A stretch of DNA of 64,000 nucleotides from a virus. The translations under genes were made by a program, and so were the position numbers. The DNA is taken from positions 1 to 64,000 of the IMG/VR virus record IMGVR_UViG_3300037258_000147. The stretch is one strand, 5' to 3'. The notes beneath the pieces were generated by a model. The model was not told the origin of the DNA. It made no database searches and was given only the letters and a program-made list of their open reading frames with translations. Shown here in pieces: positions 1 through 62,618 of the stretch; the stretch's first letter is position 1; the number at the start of each line of letters is the position of its first letter.

Positions 1-251
1 GAACTACTGTTCAACTTCAAGACGGATCGGAAATCAACGAGTGCGAACGCTGCGGACGGTCCATTACTTGGACCAACTTCGAGATGAACGAAATTCTACC
101 GAAGGGTAAAGGCGGCGGTAAAACTGGAGGGGAAGTCAGCTTGGAAAACTGCGAGGCTTTGTGTCGCGGGTGCCATCAAGGTTCCCCGGACTCTGCCCAC
201 GGAAATAGACGGTGGCATACTGCAAAACTTAACTTGGAATCAGGACCCTAA
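1..251 (+). CDS. HNH-like endonuclease, 5'-truncated by window edge
   Basis: Frame from nt 3 reads ...CERCGRSITWTNFEMNEILPKGKGGGKTGGEVSLENCEALCRGCHQ...* (CxxC ... N-x-x-x-LCxxCH); not in the ORF track. Confidence 0.6.
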   Translation, partial: TTVQLQDGSEINECERCGRSITWTNFEMNEILPKGKGGGKTGGEVSLENCEALCRGCHQGSPDSAHGNRRWHTAKLNLESGP

Positions 252-769
252 TGATCGAACCCCTTGAATACTCCCCCGTAATTTCGGATATATTAAAGAA
301 ATTAAAGGTAAAGCCTCAGCATAAAGAAGACCTTACTCAAGAATGTTATGTTGCTTTAATCGAGAAACGGAAGCACTTAGATCACGGAATAAAAATAGGG
401 AAGGGCAAGGAATACGCGGCCTTAATCTGCCGGTCCAGAATTTTGGATTTGTGGGATAAAGAAAGCCCGAGAAACGCAGAGGATAAATTGGAAAAAGTCA
501 GGTTCGAGTCGCTGTCTGATCCTTCGGTTTACAGAAAGGCGGCGAAGGTCTGGGCAACCGAGGAGGTCCAGCCGTGTGCCACAAAAGACGAACTTGAAGA
601 CGCTATATTATCTCTCCAGTTCGATGAATATCGAGTGATTTATGAACGGTATGTCGAAGAGAAAACTCTAGAAGAAACCGCCTCGGCAATCGGAAGTAAT
701 GTTCCCGCAGTTTGGCGGCTGGAGCAAAAAGGAATCGAAGGCTTAAAGAAATATTTCGAGGTAAGTTAA
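251..769 (+). CDS. RNA polymerase sigma-70 family (ECF-like) factor
   Basis: EDLTQE region-2-like segment; C-terminal region-4 HTH (YRVIYERYVEEKTLEETASAIGSNVPAVWRLEQKGIEGLK). Confidence 0.75.
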   Translation: MIEPLEYSPVISDILKKLKVKPQHKEDLTQECYVALIEKRKHLDHGIKIGKGKEYAALICRSRILDLWDKESPRNAEDKLEKVRFESLSDPSVYRKAAKVWATEEVQPCATKDELEDAILSLQFDEYRVIYERYVEEKTLEETASAIGSNVPAVWRLEQKGIEGLKKYFEVS

Positions 770-772
770 CTA

Positions 773-1195
773 ATGGGACTTCTTACTACAATAACAGTAA
801 CGTGCGATAACCCCGAATGTCCTAACGGGCGGAAGGGTCCTGCGGTAATTTCCTGGGAAAAGGAGCATGTCGAATCTGGAAAAATTGAGATGCCGGAGGC
901 GGCCAAATACCTGGTTCTTCTAAACCAAAACGGGAAAATGATTACTTTTTGCACTCAATTATGCGCTTCCAGTGCTTTTTTGCCTCCTGGTTATGATATA
1001 ATGCAAAAGAAAGTCATACCAATACCAAGTACCGAGAATCTTCAAAACGCTCCCGAGAACTCCTCGGGGCTAAAAAATTGCAAGTGCGACCACCCCGTCC
1101 ATTACCACAATAAATGGGGGTGCCAAGCAGTCTTGTCTAAAGAACCTGGGGATTTTTGTAAGTGTAGTGCGCAAGGACCGGAGGGAGAGCGGTGA
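773..1195 (+). CDS. hypothetical Cys/His-rich protein
   Basis: ORF in tightly coupled operon; CDNPEC, FCTQLC, CKCDH...H motifs. Confidence 0.6.
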   Translation: MGLLTTITVTCDNPECPNGRKGPAVISWEKEHVESGKIEMPEAAKYLVLLNQNGKMITFCTQLCASSAFLPPGYDIMQKKVIPIPSTENLQNAPENSSGLKNCKCDHPVHYHNKWGCQAVLSKEPGDFCKCSAQGPEGER

Positions 1196-1560
1196 TTACT
1201 TCCTCGGATTTTACAAAATCTCTGCTTGCCCTTGCCTGCTGGCGGGCCGCTAAAACCGATCTACACTCGTCCATGTTAGGCGTCTGCATGGTGTTTATGA
1301 ACCGGGTGAAACTAAAGTGGTACGCCGGGGATTTATACGATAACGTAACTCGCTGGCTTTCAGAAAACCCAGGCGAATTTCCAGATACCAGAGACCCTGA
1401 GTTTGAAAAACTACTAGCTAGTATAGACGCGGTATTGGCGGGAATGTATACGGACAAGACTGCCGGGGCTTTATGGTTCGCTCCAACATCTAGTCTAGAA
1501 CCTGAGGGAATTACCGGAACGGTAACCACAACAATAGGAAGTTTAGCTTTTATTCGATGA
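1192..1560 (+). CDS. SleB/Hydrolase_2-like cell-wall hydrolase homologue, apparently degenerate
   Basis: LALACWRAA...MLGVCMVFMNRV...TDKTAGALWF resembles SleB (WxEARGE...VxxVxxNRV...DPTxGAxxF). Confidence 0.55.
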   Translation: MITSSDFTKSLLALACWRAAKTDLHSSMLGVCMVFMNRVKLKWYAGDLYDNVTRWLSENPGEFPDTRDPEFEKLLASIDAVLAGMYTDKTAGALWFAPTSSLEPEGITGTVTTTIGSLAFIR

Positions 1561-1724
1561 GCCCAATCTTTAACTACCGTTGTACTGTTTGCGGGTCCGA
1601 GACAGAGAAACTTGTCCATAAAACGGACGAACCGCCAGAGTGTTCCCAATGCGGGAACAAAACAATTCAAGTCTGGAGCACTCCTAGCCCAGCGCAGTGG
1701 AAGTGCAGTAAAGGAAGTTTGTGA
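1557..1724 (+). CDS. FmdB-like zinc-ribbon protein (55 aa)
   Basis: MSPIFNYRCTVCGSETEKLV...PPECSQCG; ATGA overlap with previous stop. Confidence 0.7.
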   Translation: MSPIFNYRCTVCGSETEKLVHKTDEPPECSQCGNKTIQVWSTPSPAQWKCSKGSL

Positions 1725-1754
1725 TGGGAATTACGACGGGGCAAGGACACGCCG

Positions 1755-2240
1755 GTGAGTAAACCAAAAACTCAGGCACAGTTGGACAAGGCTACCGACC
1801 AGCGGTTAAGAAAAACCTATAACATTTCCTTAACGGATTACAAAGTTTTGCTTAGGTCCAATTGTGGAAATTGCTGGATTTGCGGTCGTCCTCCAAACAA
1901 GTGCAGATTATCAGTAGATCATGACCATGCGTGGAAGAAAGTTAAAATTCAGTCCGAAAAATGGACTCCAGAAAAGAACAACGCGGATACGTGGTGCGTA
2001 GAAGCAGACTATCTCGGACAAAATTTTTTCGCTATCAATCCAAAGAAATCTGAAGCCGTCAAGGAACTTAAACAGCAGCTTCTTAGGGCTAGTGTTCGGG
2101 GTCTGTGTTGCGTGTGGTGCAATAGAGGTCTTCGGTACTACCACGACTCTCCCGAAATTTTGCGCTCTGCGGCTCGGTACTTGGATGATTTCTCGGACAG
2201 AAACACGATAACGCTTATAGATTCTCAAGGACGACTATGA
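1755..2240 (+). CDS. endonuclease VII family protein
   Basis: YNISLTDY...CWICG...LSVDHDH...VRGLCCVWCNRGL. Confidence 0.85.
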   Translation: MSKPKTQAQLDKATDQRLRKTYNISLTDYKVLLRSNCGNCWICGRPPNKCRLSVDHDHAWKKVKIQSEKWTPEKNNADTWCVEADYLGQNFFAINPKKSEAVKELKQQLLRASVRGLCCVWCNRGLRYYHDSPEILRSAARYLDDFSDRNTITLIDSQGRL

Positions 2241-2410: not shown

Positions 2411-2772
2411 TTTATGTGTTTATAGCGGTTCTGATCGGAACATCTGTCGCTGTTTCTCTTGCGATAGACTCTTTCTCCGAAAAATTTGTCCATAAAATGG
2501 ACGACCTTCTTCTAAAATTAACGGAAGTCTCCGATAGTCTGAGCGGAATATACGAAGAGATGTACGAACTTAGCGGACATTTTATACAATTGGAGAAAAC
2601 CGCGATAATTTCAGACGAAGCCTTAGAAATCTTAAAGCGTCAGGCTGCCCGTGACCCGTCCAAAAGTATTACTAAAGACGGCCTATCTTTCTACGAAGAA
2701 GGGCTAAAAGACGGGGCCGCCGAACTAGCTAAATCTATTTTGGAACACATCAAGGAGCCAGTAAATGGGTAA
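2407..2772 (+). CDS. hypothetical protein with N-terminal TM helix
   Basis: hydrophobic N-terminus; ATGA coupling. Confidence 0.6.
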   Translation: MIYVFIAVLIGTSVAVSLAIDSFSEKFVHKMDDLLLKLTEVSDSLSGIYEEMYELSGHFIQLEKTAIISDEALEILKRQAARDPSKSITKDGLSFYEEGLKDGAAELAKSILEHIKEPVNG

Positions 2773-4042
2773 GACAGTTCCAGTTCCAGAAGAAAAGAAA
2801 CAGGCAATATACCGATTGAAGAGCCAGTATCCGTCTTGGAGTGGACGGACCATAGCCGAAGAGTTGGGCATGGCCCCTAGGACGGTCGAGAGGATTTTGG
2901 AGAAGAAAAACTCGGAAGTTTTTTCTGGAAGGCAAGAACTCCAATCCTTGACCGAAACCTCGGAAGTTAAGGGAGATACGTGGAACATATCTCTGCCCGA
3001 AACTAGTATTCACACACTAGAAGAACTACTGGAATACTGCAAAGTCGATTTGACGATCTGGGAAACAGAAAAATTCGTATGTAATAAGTGGGAACTCGGG
3101 TACAAAAATGACAAAAATGAGGGGGAAGTTTTACCTCTCTTCCAAGTCAAGGCTTTCCTCAAGAAGAAGAAAAATATCGAGGCTGCTATAAATGAAATCG
3201 CCGAACTCAAGGAACTTGCCAAGGAAAACTTTGAGGAGGCGCCATATAAGGTTCATATACTGTCTCCCGAAAATCTGATGCTTGAGCTAACCATGCCTGA
3301 TGTGCATTTCGGAAAACTGGCTTGGGGAGTGGAAACCGGTCACGCGAATTACGATGTTAAGATCGCCGAGTCCATTTATTGGACGGCTTTCGAGACGATT
3401 CTAAGCCGCGCCGAACACAGATGGTTCAACAACATCTTGTTTGTTGTCGGGAATGATATTTTGAATTCTGACGATATCGAAGGAAGAACGACCTCCGGAA
3501 CCTACGTTAGTTCAGACGCCCGATATCACAAGACCTTTTCAGCCGTTCGCTCTACTCAAGTCCGGGCTATTGAAAAGCTCCGAAAGATTGCCCCAGTAAA
3601 AGTAATAACTGTGCAAGGAAATCACGACCAGCTGTCCTGCTGGCACCTTGGGGATTCCTTAGAGTGCTATTTCCACAACTATGCTGATGTTGAAATCGAC
3701 AACCTGCCTAGGCAAAGAAAGTACCACGAGCATGGATTGGTAGGACTAATGTGGACCCATGGCCACAAAGCGAAGAGGACCGACTACCCAGCTTTGATGG
3801 CTGCGGAGCAACCCCAGATGTGGGGCCGGACTAAGTACCGGGAGTGTCATACTGGACACTTGCACATGACCAAAACCGACGAGCAGCACGGGTTTAGAAC
3901 CAGGATTTTACCCTCCCTGACCGCCCCTGACGATTGGCTTGCCACCAACGGCTTTGTAGGCAATCTGAGAAACGCCGAAGGATATGTCTGGTCTGGAAAA
4001 GAAGGGTTAGTCGAACAAGTTTATTACACGGTGCCTGAATGA
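2765..4042 (+). CDS. HTH + calcineurin-like metallophosphoesterase
   Basis: N-terminal SGRTIAEELGMAPRTVERIL HTH; DVH, GND, GNHD, HGH and GHLH motifs. Confidence 0.85.
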   Translation: MGKTVPVPEEKKQAIYRLKSQYPSWSGRTIAEELGMAPRTVERILEKKNSEVFSGRQELQSLTETSEVKGDTWNISLPETSIHTLEELLEYCKVDLTIWETEKFVCNKWELGYKNDKNEGEVLPLFQVKAFLKKKKNIEAAINEIAELKELAKENFEEAPYKVHILSPENLMLELTMPDVHFGKLAWGVETGHANYDVKIAESIYWTAFETILSRAEHRWFNNILFVVGNDILNSDDIEGRTTSGTYVSSDARYHKTFSAVRSTQVRAIEKLRKIAPVKVITVQGNHDQLSCWHLGDSLECYFHNYADVEIDNLPRQRKYHEHGLVGLMWTHGHKAKRTDYPALMAAEQPQMWGRTKYRECHTGHLHMTKTDEQHGFRTRILPSLTAPDDWLATNGFVGNLRNAEGYVWSGKEGLVEQVYYTVPE

Positions 4043-6073: not shown

Positions 6074-6277
6074 GATTCTTCCTACCCTAAAAGTTGGAAG
6101 AAGAAGTTGAGATAACCATAACGATGGACAAAGAAAATGTCTATCTCCAAATAGGACCACGAGATTGGGCGTGGAATCGAGCAACCAAAGAACTACATAG
6201 CTCCGGCACTGATTTAGGTGCTTTCAGCGGTAAAGATGCGGAGTTTTGGACGAGATAACCAATCCGAATAATGGACA

Positions 6278-6328: not shown

Positions 6329-7675
6329 TTACTGTTTCTTAGGGGATTCGCCGGTATCCAAGTAATCCTGCATCTTCCGTAGGATTTGAATCTGCTTTAC
6401 GGAATACATCGTGTGTCCGGAATCCTTCTGACCTTGATGACCGTTTCCTTCGTTGGCTAAGTACCCTCGAATATAGGCATCGTAGGTGGGGCCGAAACGG
6501 TCAGTTGATTTGTTCACGTCGTCCCACCAAGTTTTATTCTGCTTCTGTCTTTCAAGTTCTTGCGGGGTGAAACTCTGCATGAACTGATCGCGCAAGTTTT
6601 TCCAATATGGATCGCTGGACATACCGTGCATCAGATCGCCATACACAGCTTTCTTCAAAAGTTCAGGATTCTTCTTTAGATCGTCCGAGTAAATCTCAAT
6701 GACATTCTTACCAGGGGCCGGTGATGGAAAGTCTTTGGTTCCTGGGTCGTCTGATTTCCAATATTCTAATCCGCCTCTTTCCTTGAGACCGCGTTTCGAA
6801 CGCTCTGGATCAGCCAACACCACAACGGTATTATCCTTATTAAACGTCTTGGAGAGGCCGGGATATTTTTGCAGCACCTCTTGTAATACTTGGGAAGGCT
6901 GCGCTTGCTTGTTTTTGGGGGTTGTAGATTGAGATTTGCCGCCCATTAGAGGATCAGCGGGCAACACCCCGAGGCCTGGTGTGTCATACGAAGGCAGACC
7001 AGGAGGTTTTGGGGAGCCGGTGATGTCTATGGGTTTCTGAATGCCAAGCAATTCGAGCAGCGGACTTCTGTCCAGATTTACTTTGGAACTCGGCATGTCA
7101 GCTAGTTGTTGAATGAACGGATGATACGCTTGTTGCAGATCGTACATCTGTTTTTCTTCAGCGGGTGTGATTTTTCCTTGGGCTGCTTTGGCCAAATACT
7201 GATCGTGATAGAATTTGTAGTCCTTGACGATCTCGGCTTGTTGTTCGTCGTTGAAGTCTGCTATAGTGTTCCGATTTGCTAACGCCGTTTGGAGACCTTT
7301 GATCCCACCGTAATCGTATGCGGCTCTTCCGGATTGAGTTACCGGTGCCGACACGCTTGGGAGGTCTTTGTTGCGAGTCTCCTGATAGGTGTGCGTCAAC
7401 TCGTGGTTGAGAATTGGTGGGCCGTACAAATCTGGAGAGAGAACTTGTACTTTATACGGATCGTCGTCAGACACTTTTGCGATTGAGTTTCTGTCTAGTT
7501 CTGTTATCGGAGCAGTCTCTACTTGGCGCACTTTGCTCATATCGATTCCGCTTTGAATGAATGCAGGCACGTCGCTGTAATCGACTACATACCCAGACGG
7601 CGGAGTTACGTCTACCCTATACCCCGGGGGAGGAATAGGTTGTCCATTATTCGGACTGACGACGGGACTAGCCAT
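6329..7675 (-). CDS. putative internal virion/ejection protein with HExxH metallopeptidase-like domain
   Basis: ILNHELTH...YDYGG...EQQAEIV; last gene of the ejection-protein cluster. Confidence 0.6.
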   Translation of the reverse strand: MASPVVSPNNGQPIPPPGYRVDVTPPSGYVVDYSDVPAFIQSGIDMSKVRQVETAPITELDRNSIAKVSDDDPYKVQVLSPDLYGPPILNHELTHTYQETRNKDLPSVSAPVTQSGRAAYDYGGIKGLQTALANRNTIADFNDEQQAEIVKDYKFYHDQYLAKAAQGKITPAEEKQMYDLQQAYHPFIQQLADMPSSKVNLDRSPLLELLGIQKPIDITGSPKPPGLPSYDTPGLGVLPADPLMGGKSQSTTPKNKQAQPSQVLQEVLQKYPGLSKTFNKDNTVVVLADPERSKRGLKERGGLEYWKSDDPGTKDFPSPAPGKNVIEIYSDDLKKNPELLKKAVYGDLMHGMSSDPYWKNLRDQFMQSFTPQELERQKQNKTWWDDVNKSTDRFGPTYDAYIRGYLANEGNGHQGQKDSGHTMYSVKQIQILRKMQDYLDTGESPKKQ

Positions 7676-10600
7676 TTACCGGTGCTCCAGTCTGATTATC
7701 GTACCAATTTTGTCCGTCATTCGAGCCAACGCGGTGACCCGTTTGTGCGTGAGTCGCGGTGTACAAATACGCAGCCTCTCTTTGAACAGCCGGAGGAATA
7801 TAAGACTGTGGCCCCGGCGCTGATCCGGGTATCATTCGAATAAACTTCTGAAATACTGGGTCTTTGGACCTTTCTTCTGGGGTTTCCTCTTTTTTTGCTT
7901 TAGTCAAGTATCGTTTTTGAGTTTTTATAGTTAGAGGAATTAAGGCTGCTTTCTCCGACGGATTAGCTAAATCCAGCATCTGAAGATACTGGGTTGCGGG
8001 CAAGCGAGAGGCTCGGCTGTACAGCAAAGCGATGTCGGGGGTCTTTCCTTGAGTGGACTTTACGTTATCTTGAATTTTCTTAAGTTCCGATTCCCGTAGT
8101 TGGTCCGTTTGGTAAGTTAACTTGTAAAGGTCGGGCCACGACAACTCTCCAGCCCGAACCTGATCCTCTATACGGAGGACTTGGCGATGTCTGGCTTGGG
8201 CCACCGGGTCCAAAGGTCCGTCCTCGCTATGACTGGAGGCCAAATCTGCCGCGAATTTTTGTGCCGGTGTTGAATAGGTTTGAGCGGTTCCCCCAACAGA
8301 TTTCCACGTTTGTCCTATGTTTCCAACCTCAGGGCCGCTGCCCGACATAGCTTGTCCGGCAGATTGGACCGGGATCGGGGCCATATTACGAAATACATCC
8401 GCCCACAAATCCTCTGGTGCTAGTTTACGACCATACTGGTCTCTTCCTTCAGACAATTCATCTAGTCCCCGAAATGTTGGAGACAAACGTCCCTTAATAA
8501 AACGAACGGGGTCCGAGGCCGCTGAAAGTAGATCGGTTGGTAGAGTTCTGATACCAAAAACCGTTTCCTTACCTTCTTTGTTCTTTACAGCCAGTCCAAA
8601 AGGAGCTTCGTAATGTGGGTTGCCAGTAGTTACTAAATTCAAAACACGTGAAACTCCCCAGAGCCCAAGAGCCATTTTAGCTACTTGGGCACGCCCAATC
8701 CCCCCTTCGTCTTTGTTAAATAATCTGGCACCAGAACGCATCTCTGACTCTAGCCAATCGGGGGCCAACAGCAGTAGCCGCCCCCAGTCCTGGCTCGTAG
8801 CAGCCCGACCCATTGCCCTCCAATTGATTCCACCAAATGTTTCGTTAGCGTGGGTACCTGCGGCTTTTGCTACCCTATCTACTGACCAATCTGGATGAGC
8901 AGATTCATACTGACGATACAACAACTCTATTGCTCTGGATTTCAAAGCCGGTATGTAACGCTTAAATAAAAAATCTTGATACCAGTCCAAAGCATTGGAC
9001 AAAGTTTTCCCGATTAAAGGCACCGACTTGATGATTCCGCCTCCCGCCGACACGCCTTCTGAGTGCTCTTGTAGCGCTTTGTAGTCGGTTCCTAGCGTGG
9101 CTCCGTGTTCTACGGCTTTGCGTAGAATAGTAGGAGAATAAGGATCGGAAGGATCAATTTTCTGCCCGTTCAAAACATCTGGTCCAGTTATGTGAAATGG
9201 ATTTATACCCGTCATAATTCCGCGTAATGCTTCTTGCGCCAAGTGGAAAGGTGACAGACTAAGCAAGGTCTGCTTCAATTTCGTCCCAGCGCCCAACAGA
9301 GCCTTGCCTATTGGATTAGAAGCAATAGCAGATTTTTCCAATCCTAATCTGTTCTGCAAATATTCAGCAAACTCCGGGTGCACACGCACGTCCGAGCGCA
9401 CGAATACCGGCGCTCCGTCAGCCGAGTTGGTGACGAAGTTCCAGCCCTTCATTGCGTTATTATCAAGGCTTATGTAATCTTGCGGGTCCCAAGCGTAAAG
9501 TTTCTTTAATCCGTCATTGAAATCTTTCAGCCCGGAAAAATCCTTATTCCCCAGCATGGACTTTAGATACATGATCTGGGTTCTTAACTTATTGTTTCCT
9601 ACTTCGTCGTATTTTGCATTGGTTCTTCCAGCTTGGTCCTCAAGTCTGTCTATGGCCGTGCCTATATTTCCTGGATTAACATAAGGAGTAATATCTCTTA
9701 TAGTTCCGTCGTCCAAAAATCTTTGCAAATCCCCGGACTTAGTAAGTTGGTCTACCACAGGGTCTGCAATATTTATTCTTCTTACTCTGTTCGGATCGAA
9801 ATACATCCGAGGGTCCTCGCCATTTTGTCCAGAAACCATTTGACCTTGACCAGAAAGAACTACCGCAGGACGGCCATCAGACCCTCTAGGAAACTTGTCT
9901 CTTAAAGTATCAATCAACTGCCGGTTTGCAGCAGCCTTGATTAAAGACGTACGTCCTTGAGCCGTGATTTGCACGGGGTCAAGGAACATTTCTTTCGGAG
10001 ATTTTAAGAGTGCGGTTAAGTTAGAGTCATAAACCCTTTGTCTAGCCATTGAAACATTAGTAGACAGTTTGCCTTGTTTGGCGTCGGACAAAATTACATT
10101 GCCTTGTGGATTAGTGTCTTGATATACACGAGTCATATAATCTTCTATATGTGAGTATAGAAGGTCGTTTGCCGAACCGATTTCGAAGTTCTTGGCCTGC
10201 TGCTCCCCTAAATATTTTGAAGCCGCGAGTTCTTTATCAGACAGTTCTCCGTTTGCTACCCTTCTAAGGGAGTTTAGAACGAGATTCTGGTAGTCTTTGG
10301 AATGATTCTTGAAAACATTCGACTTGATCTGTTCGTCAAGTTGTCCATTTAACGGACGGATTTGCGACTGGTTGAAGGCTACATAAGTGTCTTCTCCAGA
10401 ACCCTCCAGATTATTTTTGTAGACAAGTCCGTCGTAACCCTTGGATTGAAGATAAGATTTGACCTTTTCAAGTTCTTCGTTTTGCGCTTGTTGGAAAGAT
10501 GAAAAAAGTTTGTCTTTGATTTCCTGCTTGGACAGACCCTGTAATCCCTCAGGACCGCCGTAGATTTCTGTTTGCCGGTCGTTTAATCTCTTGGCTAGTT

Positions 10601-12341
10601 CGTCTTCCGTTCCCATTAGTTCTTGAGGAATTACTCCTTGTTTCACCAAGTCTGGGATTGTGGACATAGCGCTGCTGTGGGGAAACCCGTGGTCCTCTAT
10701 ACGAAGAGGATTGTTTATTCCAAGTCTAGCTTCAATTACATTACCAAGTTCTCTTCCAGAAGACCCGGCTGAGAACCTCTCAGCCAGACTTCTATCTGGG
10801 GTAAAATGCGCGCCTAGACCATCGGTTCTTGGCGGGCCTTCAAAACTTATCGGAGTACCATGAAAGACAATCGGGCTTAGTGGTAACCGCTCGTCTCTGC
10901 CAGCAGCTTCGGACAGGGCGTTAAACCATTCTGCGGCTTTGCCTTTATCTCCGCCAGTTACTACATGATGAAGGACAGAGGCTAGTTCAAGTTTCTTTTG
11001 GTTTGCTACCTCTGGAGTGTCTCCTAAAATTGGACGCGGGGATTCGTGGCCCAATAATTGTCGGCCAAGTTTGTCGATACTAATTCCGTGTTGTTCTGCT
11101 ACTACTTGGCTCGCTTCTCTTTCTTTATTAGCCCTGTCTATTGCCAGCCATTCATCATTTGGTCTGAACTTAGTGTTTTCTAGAATCGGTTTGAATAATT
11201 CACCGGCAGAATTCAGGGCATGTGATGTGCCTAAAATACCAAGACCGGCTCCGACAAACATCTCGGTTCCGTATTCCTTGGCCGCGTCGTAGTCCCCTTC
11301 TTTTAACGCATCCAAAAATCTCGGAGACATTTGAGACGCTACTTGTAGTTGTTGTAGAGTAAACCCGGTTGTCAATAAAGTCTTGGCAGTTTTGGCTGCG
11401 CGCAGACTTGTTGCTATAGGTAAATCTGGTACGGCCTTCCTGATGATCTGGAAAGCTCCTCGATCAATCGCATCCCCGCCCAGCAAATCTTGTTCAGTCA
11501 TCCCGTTGTTGTATAAAGCGGCCTGCGCTCTTTTCCACAACGTAGGATCAACACCAGCTTGTTTAACCGCGTCTTCAACCGGGCTGAAATCTTGGGTAGC
11601 TTTTCTGATAGTTTGACTAGCATCAGAAAGTTGTTTAATCTGGTCTTCAGAAAACCCGGAGGCAGTGAGTTGTTTTTGGACTGCTTCTTCCCCGAATTTA
11701 TTAGACAGGTCTATGGGGCCTAGTTTTAACTTGGCGTCATTGACTAACTTAACTAACTCATCTCCCCCCTTAGCCTTAAGAGCGTCTGTAATAACCGGCT
11801 CAATAGGCTTCAGGTCTTTTTGAGCCTGAAGTGCTGCTTGAGATGCTTTTACGATCTGAGGGATTTCTTCGGCTGCAAATTCTCCAGTTTCTTTTAAAGC
11901 TGTGACCCCCGCTGATTCTAAAAGCCCGCCCCCGCCAAATGTAGCAGCCGTAAGAGCTAAAGACAAAGGAGACGTAAGCCCGGAAGCTATATGCTCCAAT
12001 CCTCTTTCAAACCCACCAGCACCTTGTCTGTTTTCTGGAAGCCCGAATAACGATTCGGTTAGAGGAGTGTTGGCAAAATCCCAGGCACGTTTGTACCATG
12101 GTTGGTTAGGGTCTTCGTATAAATGAGACTCAGGTTGTCCATTTTCCGGACTAGAAGAATCTGGGGACCCTACTACAGCAAATCCGTTTTCATCGAAAGC
12201 AGGACTTGAAGACGAAAAAGGGCGGGGACTCGGTGAAGAGCCTCCGCCCACTATTTGAAATCCATTTTGGTCTACACCCGAAGAAGCCGTTGGAGTTGCT
12301 CCAACTATCGGAAAACCATTAGCATCTGTCTGTGAATTCAT
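7668..12341 (-). CDS. large internal virion (DNA ejection) protein with inserted ADP-ribosyltransferase-like domain
   Basis: 1557 aa helical protein at the ejection-protein position; VFHGT...HFT...GYDGLVY...EDTYVAFNQSQI segment. Confidence 0.75.
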   Translation of the reverse strand: MNSQTDANGFPIVGATPTASSGVDQNGFQIVGGGSSPSPRPFSSSSPAFDENGFAVVGSPDSSSPENGQPESHLYEDPNQPWYKRAWDFANTPLTESLFGLPENRQGAGGFERGLEHIASGLTSPLSLALTAATFGGGGLLESAGVTALKETGEFAAEEIPQIVKASQAALQAQKDLKPIEPVITDALKAKGGDELVKLVNDAKLKLGPIDLSNKFGEEAVQKQLTASGFSEDQIKQLSDASQTIRKATQDFSPVEDAVKQAGVDPTLWKRAQAALYNNGMTEQDLLGGDAIDRGAFQIIRKAVPDLPIATSLRAAKTAKTLLTTGFTLQQLQVASQMSPRFLDALKEGDYDAAKEYGTEMFVGAGLGILGTSHALNSAGELFKPILENTKFRPNDEWLAIDRANKEREASQVVAEQHGISIDKLGRQLLGHESPRPILGDTPEVANQKKLELASVLHHVVTGGDKGKAAEWFNALSEAAGRDERLPLSPIVFHGTPISFEGPPRTDGLGAHFTPDRSLAERFSAGSSGRELGNVIEARLGINNPLRIEDHGFPHSSAMSTIPDLVKQGVIPQELMGTEDELAKRLNDRQTEIYGGPEGLQGLSKQEIKDKLFSSFQQAQNEELEKVKSYLQSKGYDGLVYKNNLEGSGEDTYVAFNQSQIRPLNGQLDEQIKSNVFKNHSKDYQNLVLNSLRRVANGELSDKELAASKYLGEQQAKNFEIGSANDLLYSHIEDYMTRVYQDTNPQGNVILSDAKQGKLSTNVSMARQRVYDSNLTALLKSPKEMFLDPVQITAQGRTSLIKAAANRQLIDTLRDKFPRGSDGRPAVVLSGQGQMVSGQNGEDPRMYFDPNRVRRINIADPVVDQLTKSGDLQRFLDDGTIRDITPYVNPGNIGTAIDRLEDQAGRTNAKYDEVGNNKLRTQIMYLKSMLGNKDFSGLKDFNDGLKKLYAWDPQDYISLDNNAMKGWNFVTNSADGAPVFVRSDVRVHPEFAEYLQNRLGLEKSAIASNPIGKALLGAGTKLKQTLLSLSPFHLAQEALRGIMTGINPFHITGPDVLNGQKIDPSDPYSPTILRKAVEHGATLGTDYKALQEHSEGVSAGGGIIKSVPLIGKTLSNALDWYQDFLFKRYIPALKSRAIELLYRQYESAHPDWSVDRVAKAAGTHANETFGGINWRAMGRAATSQDWGRLLLLAPDWLESEMRSGARLFNKDEGGIGRAQVAKMALGLWGVSRVLNLVTTGNPHYEAPFGLAVKNKEGKETVFGIRTLPTDLLSAASDPVRFIKGRLSPTFRGLDELSEGRDQYGRKLAPEDLWADVFRNMAPIPVQSAGQAMSGSGPEVGNIGQTWKSVGGTAQTYSTPAQKFAADLASSHSEDGPLDPVAQARHRQVLRIEDQVRAGELSWPDLYKLTYQTDQLRESELKKIQDNVKSTQGKTPDIALLYSRASRLPATQYLQMLDLANPSEKAALIPLTIKTQKRYLTKAKKEETPEERSKDPVFQKFIRMIPGSAPGPQSYIPPAVQREAAYLYTATHAQTGHRVGSNDGQNWYDNQTGAPVNG

Positions 12342-14487: not shown

Positions 14488-15233
14488 TATACTTTTTTCG
14501 CCAGACTGCCGCCCACACCGCCCGTAAAGGAATCTAGTCCAGCGCCTAGCGCTCCACCCAAAAGACCGCCTACGACGTTCCAAGGGCTTGCAGCGTTGTT
14601 CATTTGTTGAACTTGGGAAGCAGAGTCAAAAGCTGAACTTCCAGCGCCTGTAGCCTGCCCGGCGTATCCGGTAGGGTTATACATGCCAGCCACGCCTTGT
14701 TCTTCTCCTAAAGCAGACTGGTACTGGTTATATCCTTGCTGATATCCAGCTTGTTGGACGCCCATTAGCTGGTTTGAAGCCTGATTAGCGCCTGCTGCGG
14801 CCAGACTAGCTTGTTGTGCGGCTTGTGCGCCTGAAGGGAGGTAAGAATTTCCACCCCCAGCGGTTGCTTGGTTGGCTTTAAGGGCCTGAGAAGCGGCGGC
14901 ATACTGTTGTCCAGTTCCTTGTACGGCCTGAGAATTTAAATTATTGGTTTCGGCAGTCGAAAAGCCAAATTGATTAGGGCCTGCGTTTATAATCGGGGAC
15001 AGGGTATTATTCAAACTCGAAAGAATATTTGACTGTTGGGCAAATTGGGTGTTATAATCATTCGTAAGGGTTGAATAATATTGAGCCTGTTGATTAGCCA
15101 GATTCTCTTGGGAAGCCGAAGCACCTTTCAATAAAGCAATTTGTCCATAAAATGGACTAGAGTTTTGGATCACGCGGATATAACGGCCCTGTCTTTGTGA
15201 CCACTCAAATTCGATCCGCGTATAAATTTGCAT
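14487..15233 (-). CDS. putative DNA pilot/ejection protein
   Basis: Q/N/A/G-rich with C-terminal glycine zipper GGLLGGALGAG. Confidence 0.55.
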   Translation of the reverse strand: MQIYTRIEFEWSQRQGRYIRVIQNSSPFYGQIALLKGASASQENLANQQAQYYSTLTNDYNTQFAQQSNILSSLNNTLSPIINAGPNQFGFSTAETNNLNSQAVQGTGQQYAAASQALKANQATAGGGNSYLPSGAQAAQQASLAAAGANQASNQLMGVQQAGYQQGYNQYQSALGEEQGVAGMYNPTGYAGQATGAGSSAFDSASQVQQMNNAASPWNVVGGLLGGALGAGLDSFTGGVGGSLAKKV

Positions 15234-20411: not shown

Positions 20412-20435
20412 TATAATCTCCGTCCATTTTATGGA

Positions 20436-25835: not shown

Positions 25836-25890
25836 TTCATTCTCCTTGAGAAATCCTCTCAAACGGGTTTTTGTCCATTTAATGGACTTG

Positions 25891-38176: not shown

Positions 38177-38321
38177 TTATCTTCCGTGTGGTACAATGGG
38201 TTCTCAGTCAATCAGACTTGGTGGCTTCGATTTCAGAACTTACCGATAAGGTTCTCGGGTATTGGTGCGCCCCACTCCCTTGTCACGGAGACATTCTGAA
38301 GAGATTATCCATAAAATGGAC

Positions 38322-41112: not shown

Positions 41113-41122
41113 AAACCGTCCA

Positions 41123-41389
41123 TTAATTGGACAAATCGTCCTTGTCTTCCGGAGACCAGTATCGGCAACAGCCTTTTATCGGGTCTATAATCTTGAACCC
41201 GGTTTTCTTGTCCGAAGGAACTTGCTTGTCTTTTGCGACTATCTTCTGTCGGCAAAGATTTTTTCCTGTTAAATACTCGCAAGTTCCGCAGTGAATTCTG
41301 AGAGGGGTCTCGATATATTCAGATACACGAGTTCCTTCTCCGTGGGGTTCGGATTTACCCATCGCGGTTTTGGCTCTTGAGTCCGTCAT
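41123..41389 (-). CDS. small Cys-rich (HiPIP-like pattern) protein
   Basis: CGTCEY...C...IDPIKGCCRYW. Confidence 0.5.
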   Translation of the reverse strand: MTDSRAKTAMGKSEPHGEGTRVSEYIETPLRIHCGTCEYLTGKNLCRQKIVAKDKQVPSDKKTGFKIIDPIKGCCRYWSPEDKDDLSN

Positions 41390-43564: not shown

Positions 43565-43666
43565 ATTTTTTCCTTGTCCATTAAATGGACGATTAGATTG
43601 ATTTTGTTAATTAACTGTCGCGCTCGCGAAGGTCGCGCCTTGTGCGTTGCTCACGGTTCCCCAAAC

Positions 43667-50232: not shown

Positions 50233-50395
50233 TTTTATTATCCTTTGTGGGGTTTTTGACCGACTTGAAGAAGGGGCTCGGCCTGCCCCACGGTGGTGCA
50301 AAACGCCCGCATACTGGGGGCTAATATTTTGTCCACAAAAATGGACAATGTTGTATTGCAAAACTCTAGTTTTAAGGGGGTTTTGTTATGGAAGA

Positions 50396-52529: not shown

Positions 52530-52550
52530 AAACTTGTCCATTTAATGGAC

Positions 52551-54455: not shown

Positions 54456-54674
54456 AATTTTTGTTGTCCATTTTATGGACTAAATTTGAGGACCAGACCG
54501 TTGGACACCTCGTTGCTTATTGCGGTCGGCTTGATCTCTTTTATGCGGAAGCCGAGTGGTAATCTTCCGCAGAGCCAAACTCACGGTGTAAATTTGTCGG
54601 TGCTCTCCCTGGTGTCACACCACTGGTTAGGCAAAAGGTATTAGCTCTGCTACCGGGCAAGGTGTCGCCCATTA

Positions 54675-55035: not shown

Positions 55036-55344
55036 CTAAATCGTATCGTTTTGTTCTAAAGACTCTAACAGCCACAAATCTACAGACAGTTGGGTCCGAT
55101 CTTCTTGGTACCCGATCTCCTGTCCATTTTCTGGAAGCAGTTTTTCCGCCAAGATTAGAGTTGGTTCTATTAAAGAATCTAACCAAGGGTAGTCTGTTCT
55201 GGCCCGATCAAGTTCGGCCATATCCGCTAAAATCAGATTGCCGCTGTCCATTTGTGAAAATATATCAGGAAGAGGCGGCGCTGGTTTTTGCGCTTTGTGG
55301 TGATGGAAGCCGAGGATCACATATAACAAACCTACTGAAATCAT
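55036..55344 (-). CDS. hypothetical membrane-anchored protein
   Basis: AAGGAAG RBS; MISVGLLYVILGF. Confidence 0.5.
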   Translation of the reverse strand: MISVGLLYVILGFHHHKAQKPAPPLPDIFSQMDSGNLILADMAELDRARTDYPWLDSLIEPTLILAEKLLPENGQEIGYQEDRTQLSVDLWLLESLEQNDTI

Positions 55345-58406: not shown

Positions 58407-58485
58407 ACCTAAACGTAAGTTTCCTTTCTCGTATGTTTTATCATACCACAGAAGTCCAGATAATGGAAATCTTTTCTGTGAAAAA

Positions 58486-58745: not shown

Positions 58746-58833
58746 TGGCGGAAGATGAAGTAATCGAAACCTTGTCCATTTAATGGACAGCATCGGGTTC
58801 GAGCCGATTTGACCGCCTTGGTCGCCATCTTCC
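58746..58833 (-). tRNA. tRNA-Ser(CGA)
   Basis: loop CTCGAAC; variable arm is TGTCCATTAAATGGACA. Confidence 0.85.
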
Positions 58834-58979: not shown

Positions 58980-59072
58980 TGGCGGAGAGTGAGGGCTTCG
59001 ATCCCCCGTGTCCAAATAATGGACAGCCTCTGTTTAGCAAACAGGCACAATACCGGGCTCTGTCAACTCTCC
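58980..59072 (-). tRNA. tRNA-Ser(GCT)
   Basis: loop TTGCTAA; variable arm is TGTCCATTATTTGGACA. Confidence 0.9.
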
Positions 59073-59658: not shown

Positions 59659-59666
59659 GTAAAATA

Positions 59667-59742: not shown

Positions 59743-59743
59743 A

Positions 59744-59818: not shown

Positions 59819-59844
59819 GTGTCCATTATTTGGACTAAATTTAA

Positions 59845-61387: not shown

Positions 61388-61412
61388 TTGGTTTCCTTCT
61401 TAAACTGAAACC

Positions 61413-61440
61413 ATTATACCACAGAATTCCGAAATGTCAA
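61413..61440 (-). promoter_or_regulatory. sigma70-type promoter
   Basis: TTGACA-N16-TATAAT with TGTGG extension. Confidence 0.7.
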
Positions 61441-61656
61441 AATCATTCCATCATGGAACTAAAGAACCCAGTCTTTGTCCATTTTATGGACTAAACTTTG
61501 TGAATGAGAAGCCCGTTCTCTACTCGTTCTGCTACTAACTTATACGAGCGAAAGGTACAGTAGACTTTATCTAATCCAGTGTGTTCAAGGAGTCCAACCA
61601 TACTCTGAAAGTTTCAAGTTTAATAGGACGTGGTTTTCTTTCAAGTTTTTTAGCCA

Positions 61657-61884
61657 TTACGCCTCCAAAAAATATCCGCGCCTCAGCAACTCCCCGTACG
61701 CAAGTTGTCTAATGGCTTTGTCTGCTAGGTTAACATCATCTTGGTCGTTGCTTATCAACAATTTAAGGAGAATAACGTCGGAAGGTTCTTTGCACCGGAG
61801 AGCGGCTCGAACTTCGTCAGTCTTTCGAATTACCTTTTTGTGTCCAGCGACAAAGATTTTTCTTCTGTCGAATTTCATTACCAA
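61657..61884 (-). CDS. hypothetical protein
   Basis: ORF track; operon continuity. Confidence 0.5.
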   Translation of the reverse strand: MVMKFDRRKIFVAGHKKVIRKTDEVRAALRCKEPSDVILLKLLISNDQDDVNLADKAIRQLAYGELLRRGYFLEA

Positions 61885-62228
61885 ATAGTCCTAAAAGCTC
61901 CGACTATAGCCAGACGCTTCATTTCTTTTTGCCACAAAAATCCGTGACCCGCGAAAACTCGGGTTGATTTTCCTTGCACTCTTAAATGTAGATGACACAT
62001 CTCATGAAGCAGGGACTGGAGGGCACGACATTCGGCTCCCAATTTCTTCATCATAGGGTTTAAACAAATCTCTGTATCTTCCAGAGTATGAGTCCAAACT
62101 AAGAGTTGCGCGGCTCTTTTATGAGTAGTTTTGGAACTCCAGATTACAGCGGCATCTACAGGTAATTTATTCCCAAAGTACCTTTTGTTGAAAATATCGT
62201 ACTGCAACTTCAACCAACGATTAGTCAT
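61878..62228 (-). CDS. SprT-like metalloprotease
   Basis: FNKRYFGNKLP...LLHEMCH...HG..WQKEMKRL. Confidence 0.85.
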   Translation of the reverse strand: MTNRWLKLQYDIFNKRYFGNKLPVDAAVIWSSKTTHKRAAQLLVWTHTLEDTEICLNPMMKKLGAECRALQSLLHEMCHLHLRVQGKSTRVFAGHGFLWQKEMKRLAIVGAFRTIW

Positions 62229-62539
62229 TGGGTAAGATACTCAACTAAACTTGGATTCTCTTGCAAGACCTGAAGCAGGACCGGGGCCGTTGCAGTCACA
62301 AAATTTTCTTCATCAAACACATTACCAGGGACTTCTGAAATATCTCCGCAGGCGTGTAACAATTCGTGAACTAATATTTCCTGCGCTTTAGACCGTTTGA
62401 GTCTTTGAATTATCCATATTTCCAGGGAATTAGAATCTACGTGCCCGTTGTCATTTGGCATCGTACCTGCGGGCTTCCTTAAAATCGAGTAGGTGTGTGG
62501 ACCTACTTTAACTGAAGCGGGCATGGGTTTGGGCTTCAT
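62225..62539 (-). CDS. HExxH zincin-like protein
   Basis: MPASVKVGPHTY...ILVHELLHA...EE. Confidence 0.7.
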   Translation of the reverse strand: MKPKPMPASVKVGPHTYSILRKPAGTMPNDNGHVDSNSLEIWIIQRLKRSKAQEILVHELLHACGDISEVPGNVFDEENFVTATAPVLLQVLQENPSLVEYLTQ

Positions 62540-62618
62540 TGTCCGTCCAGAAAATGGAATTCTTTTTAAAGGCCAGAGAATTACTCGGCCCCGCACAGAT
62601 TTGTTTATTTTGTCAAAC

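Follow-up and report, generated by a model that had tools for sequence, protein, structure and literature searches.

The window analysed here is the whole 64,000-nucleotide stretch that opens a virus record of 104,680 bp (CheckV 97% complete). It carries 28 exact copies of a 15-bp motif, GTCCR-N5-YGGAC, some within genes, others between them, and several in or near tRNA genes. An integrase gene is present in the genome, that is, temperate gene content. A pattern search of the window returned precisely the 28 starts reported in the initial annotation, and the eight near matches described there were all present at their coordinates. Seven of the near matches (6262, 14044, 35212, 38307, 55122, 58454, and 62545) are one-mismatch sites, the change falling mostly at the outermost base, and the one at 50331 is an N6 variant. 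The copies are as follows; none is assigned a strand, and (+) and (-) refer to genes.

59..73: exact copy GTCCATTACTTGGAC; in non-coding DNA, with the sigma-like gene 251-769 beginning about 180 nt further on
1614..1628: exact copy; between (+) genes 773-1195 and 1755-2240, covered only by a doubtful minus-strand ORF
1952..1966: exact copy; within the endonuclease VII-like gene 1755-2240, peptide SEKWT
2488..2502: exact copy; within ORF 2407-2772, codons about 28-32, VHKMD
3370..3384: exact copy; within ORF 2765-4042, SIYWT; no site at the orthologous place in G001/G002
6262..6276: one-mismatch copy ATCCGAATAATGGAC; where two gene arms converge
7642..7656: exact copy; ORF 6329-7675(-), first dozen codons, SPNNGQ
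10343..10357: exact copy; deep within the 1557-aa ORF 7668-12341(-), PLNGQ
12137..12151: exact copy; same 1557-aa ORF, PENGQ; orthologous site in G001 (PDNGQ) and G002, with their own spacers
14044..14058: one-mismatch copy TTCCATTTTGTGGAC
15143..15157: exact copy; ORF 14487-15233(-), PFYGQ; site of relatives in a different reading frame (SIFWT/SITWT)
20422..20436: exact copy; intergenic, ends 10 nt before the ATG of 19320-20411(-), SD directly following
23309..23323: exact copy; ORF 20436-23366(-), codons about 15-20, PFYGQ
25873..25887: exact copy; intergenic, upstream of 25239-25862(-); apparently likewise in the syntenic region of G001, G002, and G003 (by eye)
27037..27051: exact copy; intergenic, 10 nt before the ATG of 26760-27026(-); also before the ATG of the orthologue in G001, G002, and G003 (by eye)
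29242..29256: exact copy; stretch without a confident minus-strand gene
30524..30538: exact copy; intergenic, downstream of 30594-31103(-)
31987..32001: exact copy; within the small ORF 31865-32059(-)
35212..35226: one-mismatch copy ATCCACAAAATGGAC
36058..36072: exact copy; intergenic, just downstream of the portal gene 36089-38176(-)
38307..38321: one-mismatch copy ATCCATAAAATGGAC
38751..38765: exact copy; ORF 38665-38991(-), PLNGQ; PNNGQ at the same place in G003
41118..41132: exact copy at a junction; includes the stop codon of 41123-41389(-), and its end precedes by 5 nt the ATG of the large terminase gene 38992-41112(-)
43576..43590: exact copy; intergenic, 11 nt ahead of the 43283-43564(-) start codon (ATG), on the left margin of a site-free GC-rich island
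48925..48939: exact copy; ORF 46647-48980(-), codons about 15-19, conserved N-terminal part
50331..50346: N6 variant GTCCACAAAAATGGAC
52536..52550: exact copy; flanked by a tRNA-like 3' end (..CCA) and by a weak tRNA call, 52438-52529(-)
54466..54480: exact copy; 10 nt upstream of tRNA-His 54380-54455(-)
55122..55136: one-mismatch copy GTCCATTTTCTGGAA
55572..55586: exact copy; between tRNA-Thr 55439-55514 and tRNA-Gly 55728-55802
58454..58468: one-mismatch copy; on the minus strand spans the -35/spacer of a promoter-like site with an extended -10 (TGGTATGAT), ahead of the HNH gene 57792-58406
58774..58788: exact copy; sits where tRNA-Ser(cga) 58746-58833(-), a tRNA called only at a relaxed ARAGORN threshold, has its long variable arm
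59010..59024: exact copy; sits where tRNA-Ser(gct) 58980-59072(-) has its long variable arm
59821..59835: exact copy; upstream of tRNA-Leu(taa) 59744-59818(-), 3 nt from its 5' end
61477..61491: exact copy; intergenic, between 61657-61884(-) and the HNH gene 60845-61387(-)
62545..62559: one-mismatch copy GTCCAGAAAATGGAA

The 28 exact copies in the window compare with a mean of 0.19 and a maximum of 3 in dinucleotide-preserving shuffles. The full-genome count proposed in the initial annotation gave 58 exact copies (1 per 1.8 kb) against 0 for the reversed pattern, and one-mismatch sites numbered 32 genome-wide where 8.5 were expected, with copies of this kind put at about 20. Overall, there are about 60-80 sites, one per 1.3-1.8 kb, and about 60% of them lie in the interior of ORFs. 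In synonymous-codon shuffles that kept all protein sequences, the codon-preserving control that had been suggested, 4.3 +/- 2.0 in-ORF sites were expected and 35 were observed (16 against 2.1 for the share in the window). The recurring peptides VHKMD, SIYWT, PLNGQ, PENGQ, PFYGQ, and PNNGQ are real, as are the copies in tRNAs. We conclude from these sequence comparisons that the motif is under strong purifying selection as DNA, overriding codon choice, protein sequence, and even tRNA sequence. Moreover, the minimum gap between sites, 194-251 bp in four genomes, exceeds the random value (P 0.0004-0.03), and three of those four have a gap CV of 0.75-0.79.

The geometry of the motif is strict, as judged from its copies. 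N5 spacing accounted for all 58 exact copies, while N3, N4, N6, N7, and N8 yielded 0-3 each. The half-sites are (G)TCC and GGA(C), around a 7-bp centre that includes the 5' R and the 3' Y; positions 2, 3, 13, and 14 are invariant. The spacer is indeed A/T-rich, as first described, but it is not mere filler, being directional (..A-W-A-A-T ahead of GGAC). Relatives show an almost fixed, asymmetric spacer (AGATAAT, GAATAAT), which makes the element a pseudo-palindrome. Binding by a simple symmetric homodimer would leave that asymmetry unexplained.

The motif is conserved well beyond this genome. Relatives carry 51, 40, 27, 55, and 72 copies, and uncultured relatives down to about 50% TerL identity carry 40-72 each. 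G001 and G002 share 82% nucleotide identity, and of their 14 alignable sites 12 are retained. For in-gene sites of G000, the check on positional conservation found the site kept in 16 of 31 orthologue comparisons, mostly at 45-65% protein identity. In retained orthologous sites, the spacer is rewritten to each genome's own dialect, and in two cases the site is in another reading frame. In the L056/L057 clade, the outer pair differs per half-site (T..A, G..A, T..C, A..C), and G414, a 26%-identity relative, has a diverged dialect, GTACGGAAAACGGA, in which arm complementarity is broken. We conclude that lineage-specific dialects, as read from these alignments, evolved throughout a large clade whose members are uncultured soil phages of about 90-110 kb, with Acidobacteriaceae as the probable hosts.

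How the motif is recognized can be approached from its orientation. Relative to transcription, the orientations are mixed, 121:54 (69:31), such that one third of the sites run against transcription, and the asymmetric spacer is found in both orientations, SD-adjacent sites included. The 2:1 bias toward the purine-rich strand as sense is somewhat above a rough estimate of about 59% (for a 53% purine sense strand). The strict N5, the orthologous sites, the lineage-specific spacers, the use of both orientations, the non-complementary arm changes, the two tRNA-Ser variable arms made out of the motif, and the lack of enrichment in candidate host-family genomes together show that selection acts on double-stranded DNA. 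Thus, the sequence evidence supports sites that behave as duplex DNA read by a protein that is sequence-specific and probably dimeric. The motif has no evident role as a classical operator, as the early divergent control region (63.6-64.4 kb) has no motif site and promoter-like positions hold few.

Other readings of the motif were weighed. It might be the target of a DNA-processing enzyme, by way of T5-like strand-specific nicks, a recombination or module-exchange hotspot (RecT/exonuclease/endonuclease VII), or a methyltransferase or HNH target, and we consider this unlikely. Suitable enzymes are encoded (RecT, a PD-(D/E)XK nuclease, endonuclease VII, three HNH proteins, a C5 methylase, and an N6/N4 methylase), homology breakpoints fall near sites above the random rate in some comparisons (10 versus 3.4 for G002 against G001; 5 versus 1.6 for G000 against G001), one site adjoins the GC-rich island at its left edge, and the authors on Cluster O report indels flanked by repeats. 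However, three of the six comparisons lacked breakpoint enrichment, and gene boundaries confound it. Among the motif-bearing relatives G001-G003, no homologue of either methylase was detected, and for two of the three HNH genes the only homologue is in the G003 fragment. Moreover, a modification target would not predict enrichment, the mixed orientation is unlike the T5 nick system, which acts on one strand, and sites kept in place at 50% protein identity argue for a maintained function per site. Somewhat more doubtful is an RNA or single-strand DNA hairpin on messages, for instance a stem-loop that stabilizes or insulates, placed just ahead of ribosome-binding sites, or the target of an RNA-binding protein or nuclease. 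Between a quarter and a third of the sites stop 8-14 nt short of a start codon, the SD following at once, which is about 3 times random. Pairing of the arms is possible, at -3.4 to -5.5 kcal/mol for the 15-mer and -7.8 once flanks are included. A-T or G.T makes up the fifth pair, with the sense strand favouring the G.T form (18:5 by eye), and in tRNA-Ser two copies form real RNA hairpins. Yet the stem is only 5 bp, the loop is asymmetric in both orientations even next to the SD, and arm changes are uncompensated at outer and inner positions. Furthermore, spacer and complement are fixed alike per lineage, as duplex recognition predicts, and cleavage or binding would be harmful at the many sites in ORFs and the two in tRNAs.

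A site for a recruited host protein, such as a Fis-type nucleoid-associated protein, is improbable. The consensus matches the Fis-type degenerate pattern G-N2-Y-R-W5-Y-R-N2-C, R/Y positions included, and a classical phage repressor was not found among the phage proteins. The host genomes, however, speak otherwise: the motif was not enriched in one Acidobacteriaceae MAG, matches in 401 family genomes were roughly level with the reversed-pattern control, and matches in 151 genomes with one mismatch allowed were modestly above it (the latter two by table inspection, with no totals computed). The host check proposed at the outset thus found candidate host-family genomes without enrichment, nor was there a site family, and these searches support the view that the motif is not a host signal. 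In addition, the invariant positions are unlike a degenerate nucleoid-protein site, relatives have a central G, dialects follow phage lineage, and Fis is a proteobacterial protein, whereas the evidence indicates Acidobacteriaceae hosts. A promoter-type signal for the ECF-like sigma factor encoded at 251-769 of the window, or for another transcription factor, with A-W-A-A-T plus GGAC resembling a -10 and discriminator, is harder still to credit. While the sigma-like gene is retained in relatives, the most conserved half, (A/T)AATGGAC, resembles a -10 hexamer, and the sense-strand bias is 69%, one third of the sites oppose transcription, some lie within tRNAs, and a second conserved block at -35 distance was not found. 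Counted over the listed sites and ORFs, site density is 0.74 per kb in the early/replication arm and 0.37 per kb in the structural arm, the reverse of a late-promoter pattern, and a start 7 nt past the -10 would remove the SD of SD-adjacent genes. Finally, a selfish miniature repeat copying itself into the genome is largely refuted. Near-identical copies are many, and a length that is a multiple of three makes in-frame insertion tolerable, but orthologue alignments at sites are mostly indel-free and show substitution rather than 15-bp insertion, in keeping with the original claim that this is not a mobile repeat. Spacers also vary from copy to copy, positions are conserved over deep divergence, and copies are over-dispersed along the genome.

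Which protein reads the motif was sought among the phage genes. The initial annotation held that the binder could not be identified in the window, and for the window this stands, but a weak candidate lies beyond it, at 103645-104337 of the genome. It is a conserved 230-aa protein of the replication module with 119 homologues, many on contigs of tens of kb, the largest of these contigs measuring 96-113 kb. Its AF2 model (pLDDT 85.6) weakly suggests a ParB/Spo0J/Noc-like HTH DNA-binding domain. The best nine VIA-align rows all came from the DNA-binding regions of ParB/Spo0J/Noc (Z 8.0-6.5; 4umk_C, for instance, at rmsd 4.3 A across 119 residues) and stood above unrelated folds, which reached Z 6.4 or lower, although a Z of about 8 is in the VIA-align grey zone for helical proteins. 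Foldseek gave E-values of 0.8 or worse, and HMM searches with the protein matched neither ParB chains nor any Pfam family. The candidate is also predicted to form a symmetric homodimer that leaves its HTH domain free (score 0.72 versus 0.05 for the best control; contact agreement among runs at least 91%, partner pLDDT at least 81), by a mark that, in the calibration of the method, 20 of 30 proteins solved as one-chain pairs reached and 1 of 23 solved as single chains. It occurs in eight motif-bearing genomes, G414 among them, and is absent from four near-complete motif-less relatives (G412, G413, G415, and Tunturi_3). This co-occurrence is confounded by a gene set that G414 shares with the motif clade and not with G412, mostly replication-module genes (DNA polymerase A, SSB, a DUF1376 protein, endonuclease VII, and an 80-aa family), and therefore another shared protein could be the reader. 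On model and distribution, the 230-aa protein may be regarded as the best, still weak, candidate, and its location in the replication module fits a lytic-phase organizer or regulator better than an immunity repressor. Among phage-encoded proteins there was no ParB N-terminal domain (ParB_N), Cro/CI-type HTH, or Fis-type HTH, and thus neither canonical parABS nor a classical repressor is evident. The proposal of a dimeric binder is partly supported, then, insofar as the sites behave as duplex DNA that is read by a protein, and not in its canonical partition or classical repressor forms, whose domains were not found.

We favor, at a probability of roughly 55%, the reading that a dimeric, sequence-specific protein encoded by the phage binds the motif as its cognate site on duplex DNA, with about 60-80 such sites on the chromosome. 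The reader would be encoded by the phage and would co-evolve with its sites. More tentatively, binding might be additive along the genome and, by analogy, might damp or block transcription in the manner of stoperators or KorB-OB, or alternatively mark or organize replicating phage DNA as Noc-NBS does a chromosome. The function would then be either global silencing by roadblock or chromosome marking and organization. Sites gather in short intergenic gaps, first codons, and tRNA variable arms, perhaps because these are the cheapest spots for 15 fixed bases.

The nearest precedent comes from Cluster O mycobacteriophages, whose 17-bp repeat is unexplained and was seen by its authors to bound indels. 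The stoperators of Cluster A are paralleled here by site density (1 per 1.8 kb), temperate gene content, and lineage-specific motif variants, but the present orientation is only 69:31 and not uniform. Stoperators and KorB/Noc sites serve as functional analogues, of which stoperators and KorB-OB damp or block transcription and Noc-NBS marks or organizes a chromosome.

The window holds 28 exact copies of the 15-bp motif GTCCR-N5-YGGAC at precisely the starts given in the initial annotation, compared with 0.19 (maximum of 3) in dinucleotide-preserving shuffles, and every near match named there is present too. The whole phage genome (104,680 bp, 97% complete by CheckV, 47.7% G+C) carries 58 exact copies spread over both arms, and a reversed control gave none. 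One-mismatch sites are also in excess (32 versus 8.5 expected), and about 20 of the 32 have the typical A/T-rich center and differ only at the outermost base. Spacer length is strict, with 58 copies at N5 and 0 to 3 each at N3, N4, N6, N7, and N8. Within ORFs, 35 sites were observed versus 4.3 +/- 2.0 after synonymous codon shuffling within each ORF; therefore, the motif has shaped codon choice and, in part, peptides. The spacer was originally described as varied and A/T rich, and the A/T-rich center is borne out, but the center is directional. Read along the strand of the local gene, the copies give the consensus tt(t/a)-GTCC-(A/g)-(t/a)-(A/T)-(A/t)-A-A-T-GGAC-(a/g)aa, a pseudo-palindrome with symmetric arms in which the right half, (A/T)AATGGAC, is stricter. 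Moreover, copies avoid one another, as the smallest gap is 194 to 251 bp in four genomes (P = 0.0004 to 0.03), and in three of those four the spread is more even than random. We conclude that the motif is a real, striking, and well-conserved feature of this phage.

The motif is a property of a lineage. No close phage was found in GenBank at the DNA level. Among sequencing runs, the source soil DNA run alone contains the sequence, and no RNA run was listed for it. In IMG/VR, however, a terminase search returned ten contigs at 66 to 70% identity, all ten with the motif, and a profile search returned 79 loci, in most of which the motif was the top or near-top gapped palindrome down to ~50% terminase identity. 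It was absent from one locus at 54% terminase identity (L050) and from most loci at <=30%. Whole records of relatives carry 51, 40, 27, 22, 13, 55, and 72 copies. Tunturiibacter phage Tunturi_3, the nearest cultured phage by terminase (26%), has one chance copy only and lacks the motif family. As related phages diverge, the variant of the motif changes with them, and we refer to each lineage-specific form as a dialect. The uncultured relatives G001 and G002 share the dialect GTCCAGATAATGGAC, G003 has GTCCGAATAATGGAC, and successive clades have AWAAAAT, AGATAAT, GAATAAT, GGGTAAT, AGAAAAT, TTCC..GGAA, and GTACGGAAAACGGA. We note that each of two distant relatives has its own dispersed motifs: GTAT-N3-ATAC occurs in 38 copies in G412 (L127-L131), and several further 9-mers, such as TCGCCCGAA and TTCGGGCAA, occur in 40 to 44 copies each in G414 (L122-L126). 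Large soil phages of this group may commonly carry short repeats throughout their genomes.

Where the copies sit is biased toward gene boundaries. Non-ORF DNA is touched by 23 of the 58 copies (7 expected), ~13 more lie within the first 110 nt of ORFs, and the remainder are internal. A start codon with a Shine-Dalgarno-like sequence is found at -8 to +35 nt of the copy end for 16 copies, compared to 5.6 at random positions, and the enrichment is similar in three relatives. Most of the 16 end 8 to 14 nt before the start, and a few supply their own ATG as the start. Several copies either hold the upstream stop codon or provide the ATG by a TAATG overlap, as at the start of the DNA polymerase gene and at the junction of a split helicase gene. 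Two copies stand in the place of the long variable arm, in tRNA-Ser(gct) and tRNA-Ser(cga), and others abut tRNA ends. The features concerned are as follows.

Genome 88078-89921 (L016:4078-5921): split UvrD-type helicase, N- and C-terminal ORFs, with the TAATG stop/start overlap inside a motif copy
Window 50396-59818, minus strand: tRNA array of 28 genes (35 calls at relaxed threshold), including both motif-armed tRNA-Ser genes
Window 43700-47800: GC-rich island of 4 kb, 55-65% G+C (59%) against 47% for the genome, comprising ORF 43667-45910 and part of ORF 46647-48980

The helicase split is common to G001 and G002, where extra DNA parts the two halves. No copy lies inside the GC-rich island, and its left edge alone meets a site. 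The 777-aa ORF is conserved in relatives only over its first ~35 residues, as in exchangeable tail-fiber genes, and the island is probably a recent import. Sites are likewise missing, either exact or with one mismatch, across 62653-65581, a stretch that includes the putative early control region, the divergent region at 63.6 to 64.4 kb. A small RF-1 domain protein (ArfB/peptidyl-tRNA hydrolase-like) is encoded at 63262-63603 and adjoins the large tRNA set. Over the whole genome, Rfam at its gathering threshold returned tRNAs alone, with no twister ribozyme at 64890-68050 (L015:890-4050).

What selection maintains can be read from orthologous positions. Most orthologue alignments are gap-free, in keeping with the original view that the copies do not belong to a mobile repeat, and sites therefore arise by substitution rather than insertion. 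Site positions are conserved: 12 of 14 sites are kept between G001 and G002, which are 82% identical where alignable, and a same-place site was found in 16 of 31 orthologue comparisons between the present genome and its relatives, mostly at 45 to 65% protein identity. Kept sites are rewritten to the local dialect, such that VHKMD is matched by VRIMD, PENGQ by PDNGQ, and VHLLD by VQIMD, and twice the site is kept in another reading frame (PFYGQ versus SIFWT). The asymmetric center lies in the sense orientation relative to local transcription in 121 sites and antisense in 54 (69:31) over four genomes, and sites abutting ribosome-binding sites show about the same 2:1 mix by a count from the context listing. 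With the center in both orientations, a reader of the duplex sees one site, whereas a reader of RNA would see two different loops. Furthermore, the L056/L057 clade has the outer pair T..A together with the hybrids G..A, T..C, and A..C, and the dialect of G414 breaks the third pair. No compensatory change preserving arm pairing was found at either position. Thus, the arms evolve as two half-sites and not as base pairs. Judged from these comparisons of sequence, it is the duplex DNA that is under selection, rather than an RNA or a protein. An intrinsic terminator was also considered, but the flanks are T rich upstream and A rich downstream on both strands, opposite to a terminator, and a terminator scan picked one site only. 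We conclude that the motif is a strictly spaced, lineage-specific duplex site that is evenly distributed and under strong selection. Separately, two copies in G002 lie 438 bp apart at 46287-46740 (L025:6287-6740) with identical flanks of 30 nt and 45 nt, and the identical flanks indicate a recent tandem duplication.

How the motif might be read was approached through the proteins that the phage encodes. Pfam and PHROGs searches of about 100 ORFs returned no classical repressor and no regulator except an ECF-like sigma factor. Fis-family HTH_8, ParB_N, and Cro/CI-type HTH_3 domains were absent from the phage genome, and a six-frame search with the Pfam ParB_N model gave no match at E <= 1. The following proteins bear on the question.

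Window 251-769: ECF-like sigma factor with matches to Sigma70 r2 and r4 that narrowly miss the Pfam cut-offs, conserved at 40-47% identity in relatives
Genome 76468-76710, 77421-77660, 80960-81304, and 87506-87751 (L015, L016): four paralogues of an 80-aa protein (MKI.VT..HI..G...CPIALAL)
Genome 103645-104337: conserved 230-aa ORF, just beyond the window and one ORF downstream of the primase-helicase gene

The motif could be a promoter signal for the sigma factor, but its sites are not distributed as promoters would be. Within the region scanned, Sigma-70-like sites show no enrichment and hold no consistent position relative to the copies, and -10-like hexamers downstream of sites reach only 1.7 times expectation, partly because the spacers between Shine-Dalgarno and ATG are AT rich. 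A parS-like partition system had also been proposed, and two hallmarks of such a system are missing: ParB_N is absent, and the sites are overdispersed (minimum gap, ~200 bp) rather than clustered near a par operon. A Fis-type site is disfavored by the lack of HTH_8 in the phage and of any such site family in candidate host-family genomes. A polar packaging or translocase-type signal is at odds with 31 copies on the plus strand and 26 on the minus strand, and a link to recombination junctions was inconsistent across comparisons. Three other possible binders were set aside. The ORF at 81313-81696 resembles a low-molecular-weight phosphatase by eye (CX5R motif; no Pfam or PHROGs match), the ORF at 83489-84436 encodes a clamp-loader-like AAA+ protein, and a small protein common to G001, G003, and a motif-bearing element in the Acidobacteriaceae genome G184 is absent from the phage studied here. 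We note a nucleotide-metabolism trio at 4260-5382 of the window, consisting of a NUDIX protein, a weak nucleoside 2-deoxyribosyltransferase-like match, and a dATP/dGTP diphosphohydrolase N-terminal domain that is 70% identical in G414. The trio may hint at nonstandard DNA bases. The early region also encodes, at genome 68496-69179 (L015:4496-5179), a fusion of a pentapeptide-repeat protein with DUF5758, which occurs in G003 and G414 as well.

The 230-aa protein is a plausible candidate reader. The binding protein had been judged not identifiable in the window, and while a candidate can now be named, its gene indeed falls just outside. A protein atlas gave ParB-flavored leads for it, and it has 119 homologues without a Pfam assignment, many on contigs of tens of kilobases, the largest 96 to 113 kb. 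The predicted structure (pLDDT of 85.6 from a 36-sequence alignment) drew nothing significant from Foldseek (E values of 0.8 or worse), and neither a profile search of PDB sequences nor a Pfam search of each member gave a match, i.e., there is no sequence-level homology to ParB. With VIA-align, the top nine rows were all Spo0J/ParB/Noc DNA-binding regions (Z of 8.0 to 6.5; root mean square deviation of 4.3 A over 119 residues to 4umk_C), with unrelated folds at Z <=6.4, scores that by the tool's own warning are in the gray zone for a helical protein. For a pair of copies, a symmetric dimer joined by the helices at the N and C termini is predicted. The dimer score was 0.72, compared to 0.05 for the best control, runs agreed on >=91% of contacts, and partner pLDDT was >=81. 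In calibration, the mark was reached in 20 of 30 known homodimers and in 1 of 23 monomers. The modeling supports dimerization. The gene is present in the phage studied here and in the motif-bearing relatives G001, G002, G407, G409, G410, and G411, as well as in G414, whose terminase is 26% identical and whose dialect is diverged, and is absent from four near-complete phages without the motif (G412, G413, G415, and Tunturi_3). The reader could instead be a DUF1376 protein, encoded at genome 95824-97041, or a member of the 80-aa family, because what G414 shares with the clade is mostly replication-module genes that G412 is without, and the 230-aa gene is not alone among them. The 80-aa family is confidently modeled by AF2 (pLDDT of 94) and occurs in G001, G002, and G414, and comparison with PDB structures gave no match (Foldseek E > 4; best VIA Z of 2.8).

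The host is probably a member of the Acidobacteriaceae. We infer this from a 39%-identity terminase fragment in an Acidobacteriaceae metagenome-assembled genome, the motif-bearing locus in G184, acidobacterial nearest structural neighbors of one phage protein, and the terminase of Tunturi_3. In G184, four copies are clustered in 2 kb (L039:451-2453; G184:C5:256451-258453), three of them over the stop codons of small genes, and adjoin an integrase and an AAA+ gene, both homologous to those of the phage. The locus suggests a small integrated relative, and a prophage search with one terminase found nothing. The motif family was not seen in genomes of the presumptive host family: there was no enrichment among 401 of them, with counts about level with the reversed control by table inspection without totals. 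With one mismatch allowed, matches in 151 family genomes were modestly above the reversed control, again by table inspection without totals, an excess attributed to codon-friendly words. Among the genomes sampled are two unpublished ones, G008 and G031, on which no particular conclusion depends. A recurrent host 15-mer, GTCCGCAAAATGGAC, was rejected as a host signal, as it occurs in unrelated contexts over common codons (VRKMD) and was judged a codon artifact.

How the motif works may be pictured as follows. A phage-encoded dimer would bind each site, and the sites would gather where 15 fixed bases cost least, namely where genes meet, in the N-terminal codons, and in the variable arms of tRNAs. 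The effect would add up along the chromosome and would either repress or roadblock transcription, as stoperators and KorB do, or mark and organize phage DNA, as Noc does. We lean slightly toward a lytic-phase organizer or global damper over an immunity repressor, because the candidate gene belongs to the replication operon and no site lies in the early control region. In the boldest version, a dimer with a ParB/Noc fold but no CTPase, encoded in the replication module, would read a lineage "identity code" every 1 to 2 kb and mark or organize replicating DNA while controlling no particular genes. We give this reading a probability of roughly 0.2. Were the identity-code reading true, the dimer might, for example, nucleate a phage-specific nucleoprotein state that tells self from host or from coinfecting relatives, for protection, replication, or packaging, and the dialects would be incompatibility barriers between related phages.

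The motif is a new form within a kind of phage element that is known but still unexplained. To our knowledge, genome-wide short repeats have been recognized in phages since the stoperators of L5, the only case that is understood, and we know of no explanation offered since 2015 for a look-alike repeat in the Cluster O mycobacteriophages. Here, that anatomy has arisen again in large soil phages, an unrelated group that is abundant and uncultured. The comparison spans enough divergence for selection on DNA to be seen overriding protein and tRNA sequence and for dialects to be seen evolving with lineage, and it leaves a few proteins as possible readers. With oligonucleotides and a few expressed ORFs, and with no need of a cultured host, the benefit to a phage of tagging its chromosome every 1 to 2 kb becomes directly testable. 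Moreover, the motif is a practical signature by which to recognize and sort this phage clade in metagenomes.

Among known systems, the stoperators of Cluster A phages are 13 bp long and asymmetric, lie predominantly in one orientation to transcription, and are recognized by a monomeric two-domain immunity repressor of the L5 gp71 type, and each phage lineage has its own variant that follows repressor divergence. There are roughly 25 to 35 stoperators per genome of about 50 kb, and those of L5 prefer short intergenic gaps. The motif resembles them in its dozens of dispersed copies (~1 per 1.8 kb), its temperate phage, and its lineage-specific variants. The stoperator-like role raised initially is thus supported by density and dialects but not by orientation (121:54), and the motif differs further in that it is a pseudo-palindrome, most copies lie in ORFs, and the family searches identified no homologue of the repressor. 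Nor was an operator seen at the putative early control region. In Cluster K phages, start-associated sequences are short repeated motifs immediately upstream of many start codons, asymmetric, overlapping the ribosome-binding site, and found only before genes and oriented with them, whereas most copies of the motif lie elsewhere and in both orientations. KorB of plasmid RK2 at OB and Noc of B. subtilis at NBS are dimeric HTH proteins on scattered palindromes of ~13 to 16 bp, with a global effect of long-range silencing or chromosome marking. The DNA-binding regions of ParB/Spo0J/Noc give the best alignments to the modeled 230-aa protein, but the phage replicon has far denser sites, and neither a ParA nor the N-terminal CTPase domain of ParB was found. 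Clamp loading and sliding are therefore not expected.

The closest published case is that of the Cluster O mycobacteriophages, in which a 17-bp repeat, TGTTCGG-N3-CCGAACA, is present in 34 copies per genome (Cresawn et al. 2015, PMC4351075). About one-third of those copies are intergenic, one-third are near gene 5' ends, and one-third are internal, with a slight orientation preference, and positions are mostly common to relatives while the repeat is absent from host genomes (PMC4351075). The authors propose dimeric regulators, yet a transcriptional role seemed unlikely to them (PMC4351075). Like the Cluster O repeat, the motif is an inverted repeat with an A/T-rich center, more than 30 copies, mixed placement, shared positions, and absence from candidate host-family genomes. 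It differs in having arms of 4 to 5 bp with N5-7 rather than 7 bp with N3 and in its unrelated sequence, lineage, and host phylum. The present case goes beyond Cluster O in the deeper divergence followed, the dialects, the frame-shifted conservation, the tRNA-embedded copies, and a candidate reader. Ultimately, the motif is an analogue of the Cluster O repeat and not its relative.
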